Shown here: in pieces, positions 2,648 to 7,392 of the stretch
Position numbering within the stretch: the first letter of the stretch is position 1
How the letters are laid out: every line of letters begins with the position of its first letter
From: a virus
Taxonomy: Duplodnaviria > Heunggongvirae > Uroviricota > Caudoviricetes
IMG/VR virus record: IMGVR_UViG_2609460356_000006
DNA length: 8,301 nucleotides
Reading direction: 5' to 3' (one strand)
Notes under the pieces: generated by a model
Told to the model about the DNA's origin: nothing
The model's input: the letters and a program-made list of their open reading frames with translations, nothing else
Database searches by the model: none
Made by a program: the position numbers and the translations under genes

Positions 2648-2838
2648 TTTGTCTCTCCCATGTGCAGCTCGGCGATTAATGCCCGGTGAATTTCCTGATT
2701 AAAATCACACGCAATAGAAATCAGATTCAGCAGCGTTTCTGAACATTCAGCAGAGGCTTTTTCCAGGATGGTTTCGTAAAGTGATGAAGCCAGCGCTGAT
2801 TTATATTCGGCCTGCTCCAGACAGATTGGCTCACGCAT
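2644..2838 (-). CDS. Hypothetical small protein (64 aa) in the replication operon
   Basis: ORF overlapping both neighbours by a few nt; no recognisable motif. Confidence 0.5.
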
Positions 2839-3022
2839 AGCGAACCTCCTGAACTGGTAGACGGCCAGCGCATACCATCACGCAGCCAGCCGGTGATTGC
2901 TCACGGGCTTCGCGCTCAGTGTTAGCTGTGATGTGAATGACGTTGCGACCGATGGCGCTCAGTGCAAGAAAACGCCAGATGTAGGACTTCCGCCCTTGCG
3001 GGTGTGTGATATGATCTTTCAT
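2831..3022 (-). CDS. Small Ash/Icd-like protein (63 aa), first gene of the leftward operon (position analogous to P4 kil)
   Basis: Internal ATG at 3022-3020 of the long 2831..3805 ORF, preceded by GAGG 5 nt upstream; product [63 protein letters not shown] resembles the Ash/Icd-like small proteins of P4-like islands (from memory). Confidence 0.6.
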
Positions 3023-3109
3023 AGCTGCCTCGTTACTTTCGCTAACGGTGGTGGTTAGAGGCCCGGTTAGTGTTCCACCACTGCCGGGCTTTGCTTTACT
3101 AAAAGTCAT

Positions 3110-3169
3110 GCAATGTAGTACATTGTCAACTCCACTACAGACTAGACCACAGGAGTTGACAATGTCAAC
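3110..3169. promoter_or_regulatory. Divergent control region with palindromic operator-like sites
   Basis: Perfect palindromes CAATGTAgTACATTG (3110-3124) and GTTGACAaTGTCAAC (3155-3169, centred on the RHH start codon), extra half-site TTGTCAAC (3123-3130); 13-bp inverted repeat CATTGTCAACTCC (3121-3133) / GGAGTTGACAATG (3152-3164). Confidence 0.5.
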
Positions 3170-3335
3170 AAGCGAAAATAAAGAGCGCCATGTTGTGCAG
3201 CTCAGACTCGATAAAGAACTGTCAGAGCGGCTCGCTTTAGCGATGAAAGAAGACGGTGACGATAATAAGTCGGGATGGATAAAACGCCTTTTGCGCCGTG
3301 AACTTGATAAGCGCGGCATCGAGCCAAAAGGCTGA
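3162..3335 (+). CDS. Ribbon-helix-helix-type small DNA-binding protein (57 aa), candidate repressor of the divergent operon
   Basis: ATG at 3162 preceded by AGGAG (3151-3155); N-terminal beta-strand pattern [12 protein letters not shown] followed by two predicted helices. The 3048 start of the ORF track lacks an RBS. Confidence 0.65.
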
Positions 3336-3421
3336 ACAGGGTTACTCCCCGTAATGCTGTGGACTGCCCCTCTTAAAAAGGGTCTGTTTTGCGCAACTAT
3401 TAATGAGTTGTGCAGAGGCTC

Positions 3422-3445
3422 CCCTCTTAAAGAGGGTTGGTTATC
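3422..3445 (+). terminator. Possible weak hairpin terminator
   Basis: CCCTC-TTAAA-GAGGG stem-loop (3422-3436) followed by a T-rich stretch; a similar but weaker copy at 3367-3382. Confidence 0.3.
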
Positions 3446-3654
3446 TTCGCAGCTCTCTACGTTTTTCGTCGGAGCCTCTAAACCACGTTTAACGTTGTTT
3501 TGCCATGAACCCGAATACTGTTCGCCTTTGTCTCGATCTCCGTACGTTAAACGTACGCGGTTAATTTGTGCGTACGGATTTCGTCGGCTCAAGGTTTGAC
3601 CACCAGCGGCAAGCCTGGTAATCTGGCGATGTTTCTGTAAAGCGGTATTGCACT

Positions 3655-3683
3655 GGCGGCCCGGCATGGCCGCCTTTGTTTTG
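3655..3683 (+). terminator. Rho-independent terminator for a plus-strand transcript
   Basis: Stem GGCGGCC (3655-3661) / GGCCGCC (3668-3674), 6-nt loop, followed by TTTGTTTTG (3675-3683). Confidence 0.6.
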
Positions 3684-3687
3684 CCTG

Positions 3688-4380
3688 TCATACAATAGCC
3701 TCCACTTTCAGCCCGCCAGCGGTATACCCCTGAACCCGAACACCATCGACGCGATGACGCTTTTTCGTCAGAAAGCGGATGTGATCTGCGTAGACGTACT
3801 GCCATTTACCATCGAGTGCCACACGTTTAAACCACGGATGAGGCTTAGATATGGTCTGGACAACTGGCGCGGAAGCCTTGCAGGGCGTGGGTTCTGCTGT
3901 GCATACCCCCTTATCGTTACCCGTTACTCTATACAGCCAGTAACTTGCCAGCTTCCCGGTCAATTTACGGGTGCGCACGGGGATATAACCCGCCTCACGC
4001 ATCGCCTTACCAAAAGTGGCATCGTCCGGGTAATACTGGCGGCGTAGTTCCGTAGATACTGAAACGGCAAAGCTGCGTTTAGTCGGGTATTCCTGCCACT
4101 GGCCGACAAATTCAAAAGGAAGACCATTAACCCTTCCTTTGGTCTTGTCCTTGCCGCTTATCCCTACATCATGGTCTGCCTCATGCACGGACACGCCGGA
4201 ACGCAGCCACACCAGCCCGTTACCGTTGTGGCGCAACCCCAGATCGGCAAGCGTAAATTCACCGCGATTAATGGGCGACCAGTCACCGGAAATAACCTGT
4301 TTACGGTTCGCTGAAATATCGTGCTGGCTGGCTACAGGGTGAGCGAATCCCTGCCCGTGGAGGGCATTAATCTTTTTCAT
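3688..4380 (-). CDS. Conserved hypothetical protein (230 aa) downstream of alpA; possibly the inovirus Gp2 / YfjJ-like family (low confidence)
   Basis: Long ORF with SD-like AGGT about 9 nt upstream, 20 nt after the AlpA-like stop (operon). Family guess rests on synteny in P4-like islands only. Confidence 0.75.
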
Positions 4381-4400: not shown

Positions 4401-4685
4401 TTAAGCAGATTTACGGCTGTATGGGTTATTGACGTTCTCTACTGCTGGCGGATTACGAACCCACCAGAGCACATCCGAAAGAAGCCAAGCACAGCTATTG
4501 CGGCCAAAGTGACAGCGCGGAGGGAAGCGCCCCTGCTGCTCCATCTTCCAGCGGCTGGAACGGGAAAGACTGGTGATCTCGCTGCATTCATCTTCACGGA
4601 TTCGGCGATCAAACTTAAAGCCGTACTCTTCTAAAAGGGTGCGGCGCTGTTCAGGATTTGGCGGGGTAAAGGTTATATTTTGCAT
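4401..4685 (-). CDS. alpA: AlpA/Vis-family phage transcriptional regulator (MerR-like HTH), 94 aa with N-terminal extension
   Basis: SLSRSSRW...GRFPPRCHFGRNSCAWLLSDVLWWV aligns by eye with the AlpA HTH and W-x3-EVxxW motifs; GGAGG upstream of the ATG. Confidence 0.8.
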   Translation of the reverse strand: MQNITFTPPNPEQRRTLLEEYGFKFDRRIREDECSEITSLSRSSRWKMEQQGRFPPRCHFGRNSCAWLLSDVLWWVRNPPAVENVNNPYSRKSA

Positions 4686-5275: not shown

Positions 5276-5926
5276 TCATTCCGTATAATAAATCGAATTT
5301 AATGCCTTTCGAATTTTCTCATATATTGCTGATTTAGATAATCCAGTTTTAGATATACCTTCCTCATCAGCTAATTTATATAGTTCGTTTAAAATAGCCG
5401 AGATGCTTGGTTTTTTAGAGGTGCCAAACGAATGGCCTATCTTATGTGCTATAAGCTTGACCAGCATCCCCATTAATTTATCATTATATTCCTTTTCATC
5501 TTCTTTACGATGCAAGCCGCGTTTGCTGCTTTTCAATGCAATTCCGACCTGTAAAAGCTCATCCCCTCCCATAGCATAAAGATGCTCTTTTCCTTTGTTT
5601 TGATTAGCAATTATAGCCACCGCCGCAAGGCATCTGTCCTTTATGGGTTGTGGTGTAATATCTTCATCAATAAGAGGATATGCCAGAGCAAACATATAGT
5701 CTGCGGGATAGGCTGTTGAGTTTCCACCTCGAAATAATTTAGATGCTGATAACCATCTACTCAGTTGTCGATAGTATATATTGTAAGCTTCAACTTTCGC
5801 TTCAGGGATATCAGCAGTTTTAACTGTCGGATCTACCCCACACATAAGTAGTGCAAGTTGTTTAATATTTAGCTCCGGGGCTTTGGCTTCTCGCTCGAAA
5901 ATACCCAATTTTAGAAAACTAGTCAT
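5276..5926 (-). CDS. AT-rich cargo protein of unknown function (216 aa) with a C-terminal HTH-like segment, start/stop-coupled to int
   Basis: ATG (5926-5924) overlaps the integrase stop as TAATG; sampled 60-nt lines give roughly 27-45% G+C against about 65% in a sampled line of the replication module; C-terminal ISKTGLSKSAIYEKIRKAL resembles an HTH; no family recognised. Confidence 0.75.
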   Translation of the reverse strand: MTSFLKLGIFEREAKAPELNIKQLALLMCGVDPTVKTADIPEAKVEAYNIYYRQLSRWLSASKLFRGGNSTAYPADYMFALAYPLIDEDITPQPIKDRCLAAVAIIANQNKGKEHLYAMGGDELLQVGIALKSSKRGLHRKEDEKEYNDKLMGMLVKLIAHKIGHSFGTSKKPSISAILNELYKLADEEGISKTGLSKSAIYEKIRKALNSIYYTE

Positions 5927-7146
5927 TATTCAGCCTTATTCAACAAAACAATGTTAGTGAATCCACCTGATAAAATATCAAGTCTGTCATACCATTTATT
6001 CAACGCATCCAGTTTCTCAGGCAAGTACAGACTACGGTTATAAATCGCCATGACTCCCGGCATTGAGTGCCCCAGCAACTGTTCGACAACGTGTGGTGCT
6101 ATACCCATATTATTCATATGCGTTGCTAAAGTTCGTCTTAGATCGTGCAGTGTCCATGGTTCAGAATGCCCTAGCTTTTTATAAACGCCGCGGCCCCACT
6201 GACTTACCGCTTCACTGCCTTTAACCGACCCAAGCAAAAGGCCGGATCGTTTCGTTTCATCATGCAGTATTTCAATGAATTTGCGCATGGCATCCGGCAC
6301 AGGTCTTACAATCTTCTCGCCACCCTTGCTGTGCTCTTTGGGAACTGTCCAGACCCAGGCATCCATATCCCATTCACTCCACTCTGATAGCCTGGCCTCC
6401 TGCGTTCGGCACCCAAACACTATTAAGATTGTCAGTAGCCTGGTGTAGTAAGGCATGAAGCAAGTGCCAGAGGAAATGGCAGCCCATAAATCGCCAGCCT
6501 CTTTATCGTTTAATACCCGGTCTTTTTTTGCCTGTTTTTTACCGACATCTGGAATTGTTAAATCTTCAAGCGCGGTACTCACAGCATAGCGACGAACCCG
6601 GCAGAATTTCAGGGCTTGTTTGCACATCTGGAACACATAACCTGCGGCGACTGGAGTTTTCTTTTTCATCCTGTCAAAGCAGTCAAGCCAGTATCGTGTT
6701 TCACAGTCAGCGAGCGCCATTTTCCCTATATAAGGATAAATGTGTTTTCGCAGCTCCGCTTTGTGCCGTTCAACATTCGCGCGGTTCTCTTCTGCATATT
6801 CGCGTATCCAGTATTCTATAGCTTCCTTAACAGTGACCGGTTTAAGGGTTTCCTGAGTAGTCAACGCCAACTGGTGCTTTGGATCTTTACCTGAGGCCAG
6901 CCACTGGCGGCATTTATCACGCGATGAACGGGCTTCTTTGAGGCTCATATCCGGGTATCGTCCCAGAGTCAGACGATGCAGCTTCTGCCCGTCAAGTCGG
7001 TAAGTAAACACCCAGCTAATACCACCAGCTTTAGTTACCTTGGCGCTCAGCCCGGCACCATCAGCATAGAACTCAATCTTACTGGCCGGGATACCATGTA
7101 ATCCCTTTAACTTCCTGTCGCTCAGTTTGTTAAGTTCGCCAGCCAT
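5926..7146 (-). CDS. int: Tyrosine site-specific integrase, P4-like family (406 aa)
   Basis: N-terminal arm-binding-type region (LSDRKLKGL...WVFTYRLDGQKLHRLTLGRYPDMSLKEAR), catalytic motifs HDLRRT, LLGHS and downstream Tyr; N-terminus faces the host junction. Confidence 0.9.
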   Translation of the reverse strand: MAGELNKLSDRKLKGLHGIPASKIEFYADGAGLSAKVTKAGGISWVFTYRLDGQKLHRLTLGRYPDMSLKEARSSRDKCRQWLASGKDPKHQLALTTQETLKPVTVKEAIEYWIREYAEENRANVERHKAELRKHIYPYIGKMALADCETRYWLDCFDRMKKKTPVAAGYVFQMCKQALKFCRVRRYAVSTALEDLTIPDVGKKQAKKDRVLNDKEAGDLWAAISSGTCFMPYYTRLLTILIVFGCRTQEARLSEWSEWDMDAWVWTVPKEHSKGGEKIVRPVPDAMRKFIEILHDETKRSGLLLGSVKGSEAVSQWGRGVYKKLGHSEPWTLHDLRRTLATHMNNMGIAPHVVEQLLGHSMPGVMAIYNRSLYLPEKLDALNKWYDRLDILSGGFTNIVLLNKAE

Positions 7147-7316: not shown

Positions 7317-7331
7317 TACGGCATGAACTAA
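7317..7331 (+). other. fis: Displaced 3' end of host fis (codons Y-G-M-N-stop), marking the island/host junction (att core region)
   Basis: TACGGCATGAACTAA encodes YGMN-stop, matching the Fis C-terminus ...KKYGMN as I recall it; upstream codons are CAG preceded by an in-frame TGA, so similarity to fis breaks here. Confidence 0.45.
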
Positions 7332-7358
7332 TTCAGGTTAGCTAAATGCTTGATTAAA

Positions 7359-7392
7359 AAGGCGCTACTCGGCATGGGGAAGCGCCTTTTTT
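7359..7392 (+). terminator. Rho-independent terminator, probably the native fis terminator
   Basis: Stem AAGGCGCT (7359-7366) / AGCGCCTT (7381-7388), 14-nt loop, then TTTTTT (7387-7392); A-run on the 5' side makes it potentially bidirectional. Confidence 0.65.

Follow-up and report, generated by a model that had tools for sequence, protein, structure and literature searches.

The RHH gene and the repeats at its start

The DNA analysed here is an 8,301-nucleotide stretch from a virus of the class Caudoviricetes (IMG/VR record IMGVR_UViG_2609460356_000006), referred to below as the window. An open reading frame (ORF) at positions 3162–3335 on the plus strand encodes a 57-amino-acid protein of the ribbon-helix-helix (RHH) type, a candidate repressor, and the same coding sequence is present in the PGAP annotation of a relative that is 98.5% identical. 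A gap of 139 bp separates this gene from a gene for an Icd-like protein on the minus strand (2831–3022; NCBIfam NF033153, E = 4e-15), which is the first gene of a leftward operon. The palindromes examined in this study sit within this gap. The original prediction had read them as a compact immunity switch combining autoregulation at the DNA level with translational control, the latter exerted by a hairpin that pairs the Shine-Dalgarno (SD) sequence and the AUG of the RHH mRNA.

A perfect 15-bp palindrome, GTTGACAaTGTCAAC, was found at 3155–3169, centred on A3162 of the RHH start codon (3162–3164). The second palindrome and the half-site that had been described upstream were also located, the former, CAATGTAgTACATTG (15 bp), at 3111–3125 and the latter, TGTCAAC, at 3124–3130. 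The inverted repeat that had been placed at 3121–3133 and 3152–3164 with a length of 13 bp is present, but its actual length is 14 nt: the 5' arm ACATTGTCAACTCC (3120–3133) and the 3' arm GGAGTTGACAATGT (3152–3165), both given on the plus strand, are 100% complementary, with 18 nt in between. The 3' arm includes both the SD sequence (GGAG, 3152–3155) and the ATG. Among 5,000 dinucleotide-preserving shuffles of positions 3023–3200, one contained an inverted repeat of 14 nt or longer (with loops of up to 60 nt allowed). Palindromes with arms of 7 nt or more, of which two exist here, appeared in 138 of the 5,000 (2.8%). The intergenic sequence containing these repeats was identical across 10 independent contigs.

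The repeats contain three copies of an 11-bp box, ACAWTGTCAAC, at 3120–3130 (box 1, ACATTGTCAAC), 3155–3165 (box 2, inverted) and 3159–3169 (box 3). Box 1 is a direct repeat of box 3 with 10 out of 11 matches and an inverted repeat of box 2, and boxes 2 and 3 together make up GTTGACAaTGTCAAC. The right half of this palindrome, TGTCAAC, is invariant throughout the family, whereas the left half is specific to subgroup 1 of the relatives. Box 1 is identical in all subgroup-1 relatives except L005. As for the palindrome at 3111–3125, most relatives likewise have CAATG/CATTG offset by 10 bp from ACATTG.

Prediction of two promoters facing each other

Upstream sequences were compared among 79 loci encoding relatives of the RHH protein in genomes, viral contigs, and metagenomes, which gave 53 distinct upstream regions; alignment-based invariance and pairing statistics were obtained from 34 distinct sequences. 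Two near-invariant elements were found, ATGTCAAC at the start of the RHH gene and TACATT. On the opposite strand, ATGTCAAC reads GTTGACAT, which is a consensus −35 sequence (TTGACA). This predicted −35 sequence of a leftward promoter, PL, is located at 3168 to 3163 on the minus strand and is the complement of RHH codons 1 to 3. The top minus-strand match to the σ70 promoter had its −35 sequence on these codons in 51 of the 53 regions (48 at +7, plus three in which the start coordinate is offset by one codon), and PL reads TTGACA-16-TATATT in most relatives. In the window, the −10 sequence of PL is weak, being either TAGTCT (3144 to 3139, with an 18-nt spacer) or TCTAGT (3146 to 3141, with a 16-nt spacer) on the minus strand. 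T3143 is invariant in the alignment, and the start of the leftward transcript is predicted near 3132–3134. PL is the predicted promoter of the operon of the icd-like and primase genes. The N-terminus of the RHH protein, Met-Ser-Thr, would be fixed because the first three codons (ATG TCA AC) double as the −35 sequence on the opposite strand.

On the plus strand, all six bases of TACATT (3119–3124) are invariant in 34 out of 34 aligned distinct sequences. This element, whose position is fixed at 37 nt before the ATG, was the best plus-strand σ70 −10 match in 37 of the 53 distinct regions. Judging from this conservation, TACATT is likely the −10 sequence of the RHH promoter, PR; the putative −35 sequence, TTTACT (3095–3100, plus strand), lies at an 18-nt spacing and is a modest match. 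Based on this −10 sequence, the RHH mRNA is predicted to start near 3131, inside the 5' arm of the inverted repeat. A different plus-strand promoter using TTGACA at 3156–3161 was rejected, as its −10 sequence (TAAAGA) is poor and unconserved. Conserved −35 and −10 matches occupy fixed positions on both strands in 48 to 51 of the 53 relatives, and they may represent a face-to-face promoter switch with the start sites predicted above.

The boxes coincide with the elements of both promoters. Box 1 overlaps the −10 sequence and the predicted start of PR and also the first transcribed bases of PL, the palindrome CAATGTAgTACATTG overlaps the −10 sequence of PR, and GTTGACAaTGTCAAC spans the RHH start codon and the −35 sequence of PL. 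The left arm repeats the RHH ribosome site exactly in inverted orientation, and positions 3106–3133 therefore read GGAG-TTGACA-ATG TAC TAC ATT GCA TGA on the minus strand, namely an SD sequence and then a mini-ORF of 5 codons, with which the predicted leftward transcript would begin. This mini-ORF is probably a by-product.

Structural assignment of the 57-amino-acid protein

Database searches with the 57-amino-acid protein gave a weak match to Pfam RHH_1 (E = 0.05; 14 bits against a cutoff of 20.5) and a weak match to the N-terminal model of NikR (E = 0.035). A profile search of the Protein Data Bank (PDB) gave NikR at E = 0.53 and nothing significant. The protein encoded in locus L002, which is 41–42% identical, reached the cutoff of YlcI_YnfO_N (30.1 against 30) and matched a PHROG labelled 'Arc-like repressor' at 4e-6, being the only variant that matches it. 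An AlphaFold2 model built from 26 homologues (pLDDT 80.4) has an extended N-terminus followed by helices at residues 18–31 and 36–50, which corresponds to the RHH fold of about 45 residues with an N-terminal strand and then two helices. The top PDB matches of this model in Foldseek were all RHH proteins (Arc, NikR, ParG, CopG, and ParD); NikR was matched with a root mean square deviation of 1.1–1.2 Å over 39 residues and a probability of 0.96. The Foldseek E-values were weak owing to the small size of the protein, and the N-terminal strand was not called by DSSP in the monomer model. For the RHH assignment, the structural evidence from the model is better than the sequence evidence. The family consists of about 100 clusters, none of them named, across Enterobacterales.

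An adjacent co-transcribed toxin gene, as in type II toxin-antitoxin systems, was not found: positions 3336–3687 carry no credible ORF and contain terminator-like hairpins, and no toxin is annotated next to the RHH gene in the relatives. This 350-nt non-coding gap, which is partly conserved in L002, separates the convergent RHH gene and a gene for a 230-amino-acid protein (3688–4380, minus strand). It carries two similar hairpins, CCCCTCTTAAAAAGGG at about 3367–3382 and CCCTCTTAAAGAGGG at 3422–3436, as well as a strong plus-strand terminator-like hairpin (3655–3674) with a T-run directed into the end of the 230-amino-acid gene.

Exchange of the boxes together with the RHH protein

In L002, AlpA, the Icd-like protein, and the primase are 97%, 94%, and 99% identical to those of the window, respectively. 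On the other hand, the N-terminal DNA-binding half of the L002 RHH protein is different (42% identity overall), and L002 has ACGTACGTACAT twice, 35 bp apart, instead of the ACAWTGTCAAC boxes, with the second copy again on the ATG. The reverse swap was also observed. Boxes of the same type and RHH proteins that are 91–98% identical occur beside Icd-like proteins of 39–50% and AlpA proteins of 37–84% identity, in islands without the 230-amino-acid gene. In other islands, the RHH slot is occupied by YlcI/YnfO-type RHH-like proteins, and the predicted promoters there carry a triple box particular to each protein, namely GGTGTGTTTCA in L003 and GGTGTATTTCA in L004. In a divergent RHH branch with the β-strand KQIAFRVD, the repeats are of GTGTCAGACAC. 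Among subgroup-1 sequences, the arms do not vary, unlike the 18-nt spacer. The natural recombinants separate the candidate binders from one another, and the boxes follow the small RHH protein and no other nearby gene.

A DNA pattern scan of viral contigs for further variants returned just known family members and chance matches. In subgroup 2 and 3 loci (e.g., L009 at about 3993–4023), CAACCAA or AACCAAA is repeated two to three times with a 10- to 11-bp period across the start codon. These repeats may be a tandem operator array written into codons.

Probable operator boxes on predicted head-on promoters

On the basis of these comparisons of sequence, we favour, with moderate confidence, the interpretation that the palindromes are operator boxes for the 57-amino-acid RHH protein over two overlapping head-on promoters of the satellite. 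The box pair at 3155–3169 covers the consensus −35 sequence of PL, the predicted driver of the replication operon of the icd-like and primase genes, and box 1 and the palindrome at 3111–3125 cover the conserved −10 sequence of PR. The two predicted starts (about 3131 on the plus strand and about 3132–3134 on the minus strand) lie within a few bases of each other. Each promoter would thus be inside the polymerase footprint of the other, and binding of one RNA polymerase would preclude binding of the second. RHH protein bound at 3155–3169 would shut PL and keep the island silent, while RHH protein bound at 3111–3130 would limit its own synthesis. In the simplest mechanism, the protein would repress the replication operon and also, by negative autoregulation, its own gene. 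That boxes 1 and 2 are inverted copies of one site would then account for the 14-nt inverted repeat, and the RNA hairpin that covers the ribosome site probably arises only because the sites are repeated.

Both the autoregulation at the DNA level and the compact switch that had been suggested gain support from these comparisons, in which the boxes lie on the predicted elements of face-to-face promoters and are exchanged with the DNA-binding half of the RHH protein. The earlier interpretation is therefore partly supported, that is, as an operator-based switch and not as sequestration of the ribosome-binding site.

Several observations weigh against operators on head-on promoters. In the window, PR is weak (TTTACT-18-TACATT) and the −10 sequence of PL is poor, both promoters and their starts are predicted, and a stricter promoter scan returned neither of them. 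The sequence scores of the RHH family fall below curated thresholds. In addition, the RHH proteins of subgroups 1 to 4 are 77–90% identical and share the same β-strand (VVQLRLD), yet their extended repeats differ. The variable N-terminal arm of the protein may set specificity, which would explain the differences in the boxes among the subgroups; or the RHH site may be limited to the core ACATTG/CAATGT common to all of them, and the subgroup extensions would then need another cause. Finally, the mirror pairing of the arms is above shuffle and swap controls (covariation 0.194 vs. 0.109; Watson-Crick pairs 4.5 vs. 3.3). Some selection for dyad symmetry exists, and it is predicted by operators and RNA pairing alike.

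Alternative explanations of the repeats

Control at the RNA level, in which a 14-bp hairpin in the RHH mRNA hides the SD sequence and the AUG, survives best among the alternatives, and we regard it as improbable. The in silico fold of RNA 3100–3180 gave the expected hairpin that pairs the SD sequence and the AUG. It is very stable (−24.0 kcal/mol, z = −4.65 relative to shuffles) and has 14 perfect pairs, and the complementarity reaches past the palindrome into the SD sequence (CTCC/GGAG). L014, with a different sequence, pairs upstream bases with the SD/AUG region over 11 bp (ACATTGGTGTT/AACACCAATGT), and L042 folds at −19.9 kcal/mol with its SD sequence fully paired. The excess of mirror pairing over the controls also speaks for such a structure. 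However, the 5' arm overlaps the conserved −10 sequence TACATT, and an mRNA predicted to start at about 3131 lacks that arm; RNA 3131–3200 folded no better than its shuffles (z = −0.15), leaving just a 6-bp hairpin of the local palindrome.

The conservation of pairing also argues against a sequestering hairpin. Over the 14 pairs, 75% of cells were paired in the 34 distinct relatives, compared with 97% for an RNA located 60 nt away. The inner pairs were broken in 35–60% of the sequences, with pairs 8 to 10 broken in more than half. A long hairpin (11–14 bp) is limited to the subgroup of the window, plus L014, and the other subgroups have 5–8 bp, which is no more than the complementarity of TACATTG and CAATGT. 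The end that pairs with the SD sequence (CTCC) is the least conserved, and TCC at 3131–3133 is changed to ATT, TCT or TCG without compensation (L006, L021, and L062). There were 20 G-U against 53 A-C cells, the opposite of what is expected for an RNA helix of the plus strand. In subgroup 3, the copies are direct and not inverted (GAACACCA ... GACAACCA), and in subgroup 4 the partner of the 10-nt repeat lies upstream of the −10 sequence, so that it cannot be in the mRNA. Thus pairing kept across homologues by compensation and G-U tolerance, as a sequestering hairpin should show, was not found among the relatives.

These results indicate that the proposed translational control by sequestration is unlikely, although it could still hold for read-through transcripts from upstream. 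The most plausible version is accordingly a narrower one, in which the hairpin forms only in transcripts started upstream, for instance those reading from a promoter at 3007–3015 past a terminator. A plus-strand promoter of this kind is present upstream, as is a terminator whose U-tract is interrupted, and translation of RHH would in this case depend solely on its own promoter. A search of the palindrome region in Rfam returned nothing meaningful, just miRNA-type matches to the bare hairpin on both strands. The possibility that the 14-bp hairpin is an intrinsic terminator was rejected because the T-run is missing after the hairpin on either strand.

It is quite improbable that the boxes are operators of a protein other than RHH, such as AlpA, the Icd-like protein, the 230-amino-acid neighbour, a helper-phage factor or a host factor. 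Binding of the boxes by the RHH protein is itself a prediction, and the β-strands of RHH proteins are identical across subgroups with differing boxes. Moreover, the Icd-like protein matches PHROGs labelled transcriptional repressor, and AlpA is a known activator of Gram-negative phage-inducible chromosomal islands (PICIs) (PMC6092414). Against these points, the boxes are wholly changed in L002 while AlpA and the Icd-like protein remain nearly the same, and identical boxes stand beside an Icd-like protein of 40% identity, AlpA proteins of 37–84% identity, and no 230-amino-acid gene. The N-terminal half of the RHH protein alone tracks the boxes. AlpA, the Icd-like protein, and the 230-amino-acid protein were rejected as box binders by these natural swaps, and a helper-phage factor acting in trans is a conceivable binder.

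Equally doubtful is the view that the repeats have no dedicated role, the symmetry being a by-product of promoter hexamers that overlap (TTGACA on each strand; TACATTG against CAATGT) and of a recent inverted duplication of the RHH ribosome-site region. The family-wide ACATTG/CAATGT coincides exactly with the −10 sequence of one promoter and the −35 sequence of the other together with the start codon, and the left arm on the minus strand reproduces the SD-spacer-AUG of RHH exactly, as duplication would. On the other hand, positions 3125–3130 serve neither promoter but do not change in 14 of 15 distinct subgroup-1 sequences, in contrast to the variable spacer next to them; four unrelated box types occur at equivalent positions in relatives, and an inverted repeat of such length is rare by chance.

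A candidate cis-antisense RNA opposite the icd-like leader

The putative promoter at 3007–3015 on the plus strand, TGaTATGAT, has an invariant TAnnnT −10 sequence and lies inside the icd-like gene. The T, A, and T of this hexamer are the sole invariant bases inside the 5' coding end of icd-like, and they are kept where the protein differs. Downstream of it, a candidate cis-antisense RNA of about 77 nt (about 3022–3098, plus strand) runs opposite the leader, SD sequence, and AUG of icd-like. It consists of two hairpins, 3024–3035/3043–3055 and 3058–3067/3083–3092, followed by a U-tract, and the hairpins start about 7 nt past the TAnnnT hexamer. In 45 sequences, 97% of the cells of these hairpins were paired, compared with 27–49% in slid controls. 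There were 93 double-change cells against 31.5 in shuffles, and none of 500 shuffles was as good. Read from the other strand, the 177 G-U cells would turn into A-C mismatches, so it is the RNA antisense to the icd-like leader that carries the structure. The existence of a small RNA opposite the icd-like leader is therefore well supported by the comparison of sequences, and this RNA probably controls icd-like translation. It belongs to the same switch as the RHH boxes and is probably a second control layer on the same operon.

The RNA gave a weak yet full-length match to SymR (RF01809; model positions 1–77) at 3023–3095 on the plus strand (E = 0.022 in a search of 181 nt). The score was 22.4 bits against a gathering threshold of 61, so the likeness to SymR is one of architecture only and not of membership. 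Neither a search of the whole window at E ≤ 1 nor one of 2995–3175 at E ≤ 10 returned the Rfam C4 family (C4/P4 CI immunity RNA). A leader RNA of the c4/CI type on the strand of the icd-like operon was rejected, as the G-U pattern places the structure on the opposite strand and a C4 match is lacking. A pseudoknot between GGTGGTGG (3048–3055) and CCACCAC (3076–3082) was also rejected, since it is not conserved, for example in L007.

The stretch at 2990–3095, which comprises the start of icd-like and the leader, is far more widespread than the RHH module. With a related query, matches were obtained in 1,429 of 5,426 complete E. coli genomes. The matches include Nissle 1917, ATCC 25922, and O157:H7 strains, and they often lie beside a YlcI/YnfO gene.

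Genes of the island

The window represents a phage-satellite island of the PICI or capsid-forming PICI (cf-PICI) type, inserted beside yhdJ. An integrase, an AlpA regulator, and a primase are encoded in one island, with capsid genes in the relative L001. The integrase gene is located at 5926–7146 (its relatives are annotated as tyrosine recombinases), a gene for a 216-amino-acid protein at 5276–5926, alpA at 4401–4685 (PF05930, E = 5e-10), and the D5-type primase gene at 501–2270, all on the minus strand. The primase assignment is based on Pfam matches and agrees with the annotation of the relatives, and the leftward icd-like operon runs on to this gene. Three further small ORFs are also on the minus strand, one of them encoding a DUF4222 protein. 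The RHH ORF is the sole plus-strand gene of the island.

The same gene order is found in L001, a 98.5%-identical relative in E. coli, which runs on into genes for an HK97-type capsid and a protease; for this reason the island is assigned to the capsid-forming PICI type. The island in the window seems to break off immediately after the primase gene, whereas L001 goes on to the capsid genes. We take the ORF at 82–348 to resemble the C-terminal part of IS1 InsB.

No family match of the 230-amino-acid protein was found in Pfam, NCBIfam or PHROGs. Its slot is variable: L002 keeps just the first 27 residues, an AntA/AntB antirepressor occupies the slot in L004, and the gene is absent from L024 despite near-identical flanks. 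These differences suggest an accessory hotspot. At 7325–7392 (plus strand), in the DNA that separates yhdJ from the integrase end of the island, STnc40 of Rfam was matched weakly (E = 0.5; 25.6 bits, with a threshold of 45); the matched sequence is essentially a terminator-like hairpin and a T-run. A search of phage records gave a single partial match and no P4 homology.

Comparison with known systems

For Gram-negative PICIs, AlpA is described as an activator, and no global repressor is known (PMC6092414). Small RHH, HicB, and YlcI genes are counted among the accessory genes of these islands (PMC13612085), and no paper giving a repressor role to the RHH gene of these islands was found in the literature search. 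Palindromes over the start of the RHH gene are by themselves an ordinary trait of an autoregulated repressor, and their interest is raised mainly by a possible part in the repression module of these satellites. If the RHH protein represses the replication operon through the boxes, it is a candidate for the missing global repressor of Gram-negative phage-inducible islands. We tentatively suggest that the RHH (or YlcI/YnfO-type) gene, the boxes, and the cis-antisense RNA might constitute the repression (immunity) module of Gram-negative PICIs, cf-PICIs, and P4-like satellites. In such a module, the RHH protein would shut a near-consensus replication promoter whose −35 sequence is formed by the first three codons of its own repressor, the antisense RNA would block leakage, and helper-induced AlpA would have to overcome both.

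The immI region of phage P22 contains the RHH repressors Arc and Mnt, the overlapping promoters Pant and Pmnt, and the sar antisense RNA. The present region resembles it in having a small RHH-type candidate repressor, palindromic operators directly on tightly overlapping opposed promoters (here predicted), a small antisense RNA in the same region, and an operon that would decide between quiescence and activity. There is no detectable sequence relationship to immI, and just the L002 variant matches the 'Arc-like repressor' PHROG. Furthermore, the operon here encodes an Icd-like protein and a primase and not an antirepressor, there is one RHH gene, and the −35 sequence of the opposing promoter lies within the first three codons of the repressor.

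Face-to-face promoters with a repressor gene transcribed across the lytic promoter, and with sites on that promoter, are also known from phages P2 (Pe/Pc) and 186 (pR/pL). In P2 and 186, the transcription starts are about 35 and 62 bp apart, respectively, and the transcripts overlap. By contrast, the starts predicted here nearly coincide, in a geometry that is predicted and not mapped, and the repressors of P2 and 186 are not RHH proteins. The immI regions of P1 and P7 (c4 RNA-icd-ant) and the CI RNA of P4 share with the present region an Icd-like first gene, a plausible control of translation by a small RNA, and a satellite or prophage context. The RNA found here differs in being cis-encoded on the opposite strand and not co-transcribed, it has no match to the Rfam C4 family, and a candidate protein repressor is present in addition.

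Autoregulated RHH antitoxins and CopG-type plasmid repressors have the same fold and place palindromic or repeated operators on their own promoter or ribosome site. Here, on the other hand, 350 nt of non-coding DNA follow in place of an adjacent toxin gene, and the putative operator also covers an opposing promoter. Stl/Rpr of the Gram-positive PICIs (Staphylococcus aureus pathogenicity islands, SaPIs) is a regulator transcribed divergently from the adjacent replication operon in islands that are also phage-inducible (PMC6092414). The two would share their role if the RHH protein is the repressor; their fold and size are unrelated. By analogy, then, while it is in sequence a member of none of these systems, the arrangement is functionally like P22 immI and the P2 and 186 switches, and it echoes the c4-icd region of P1.

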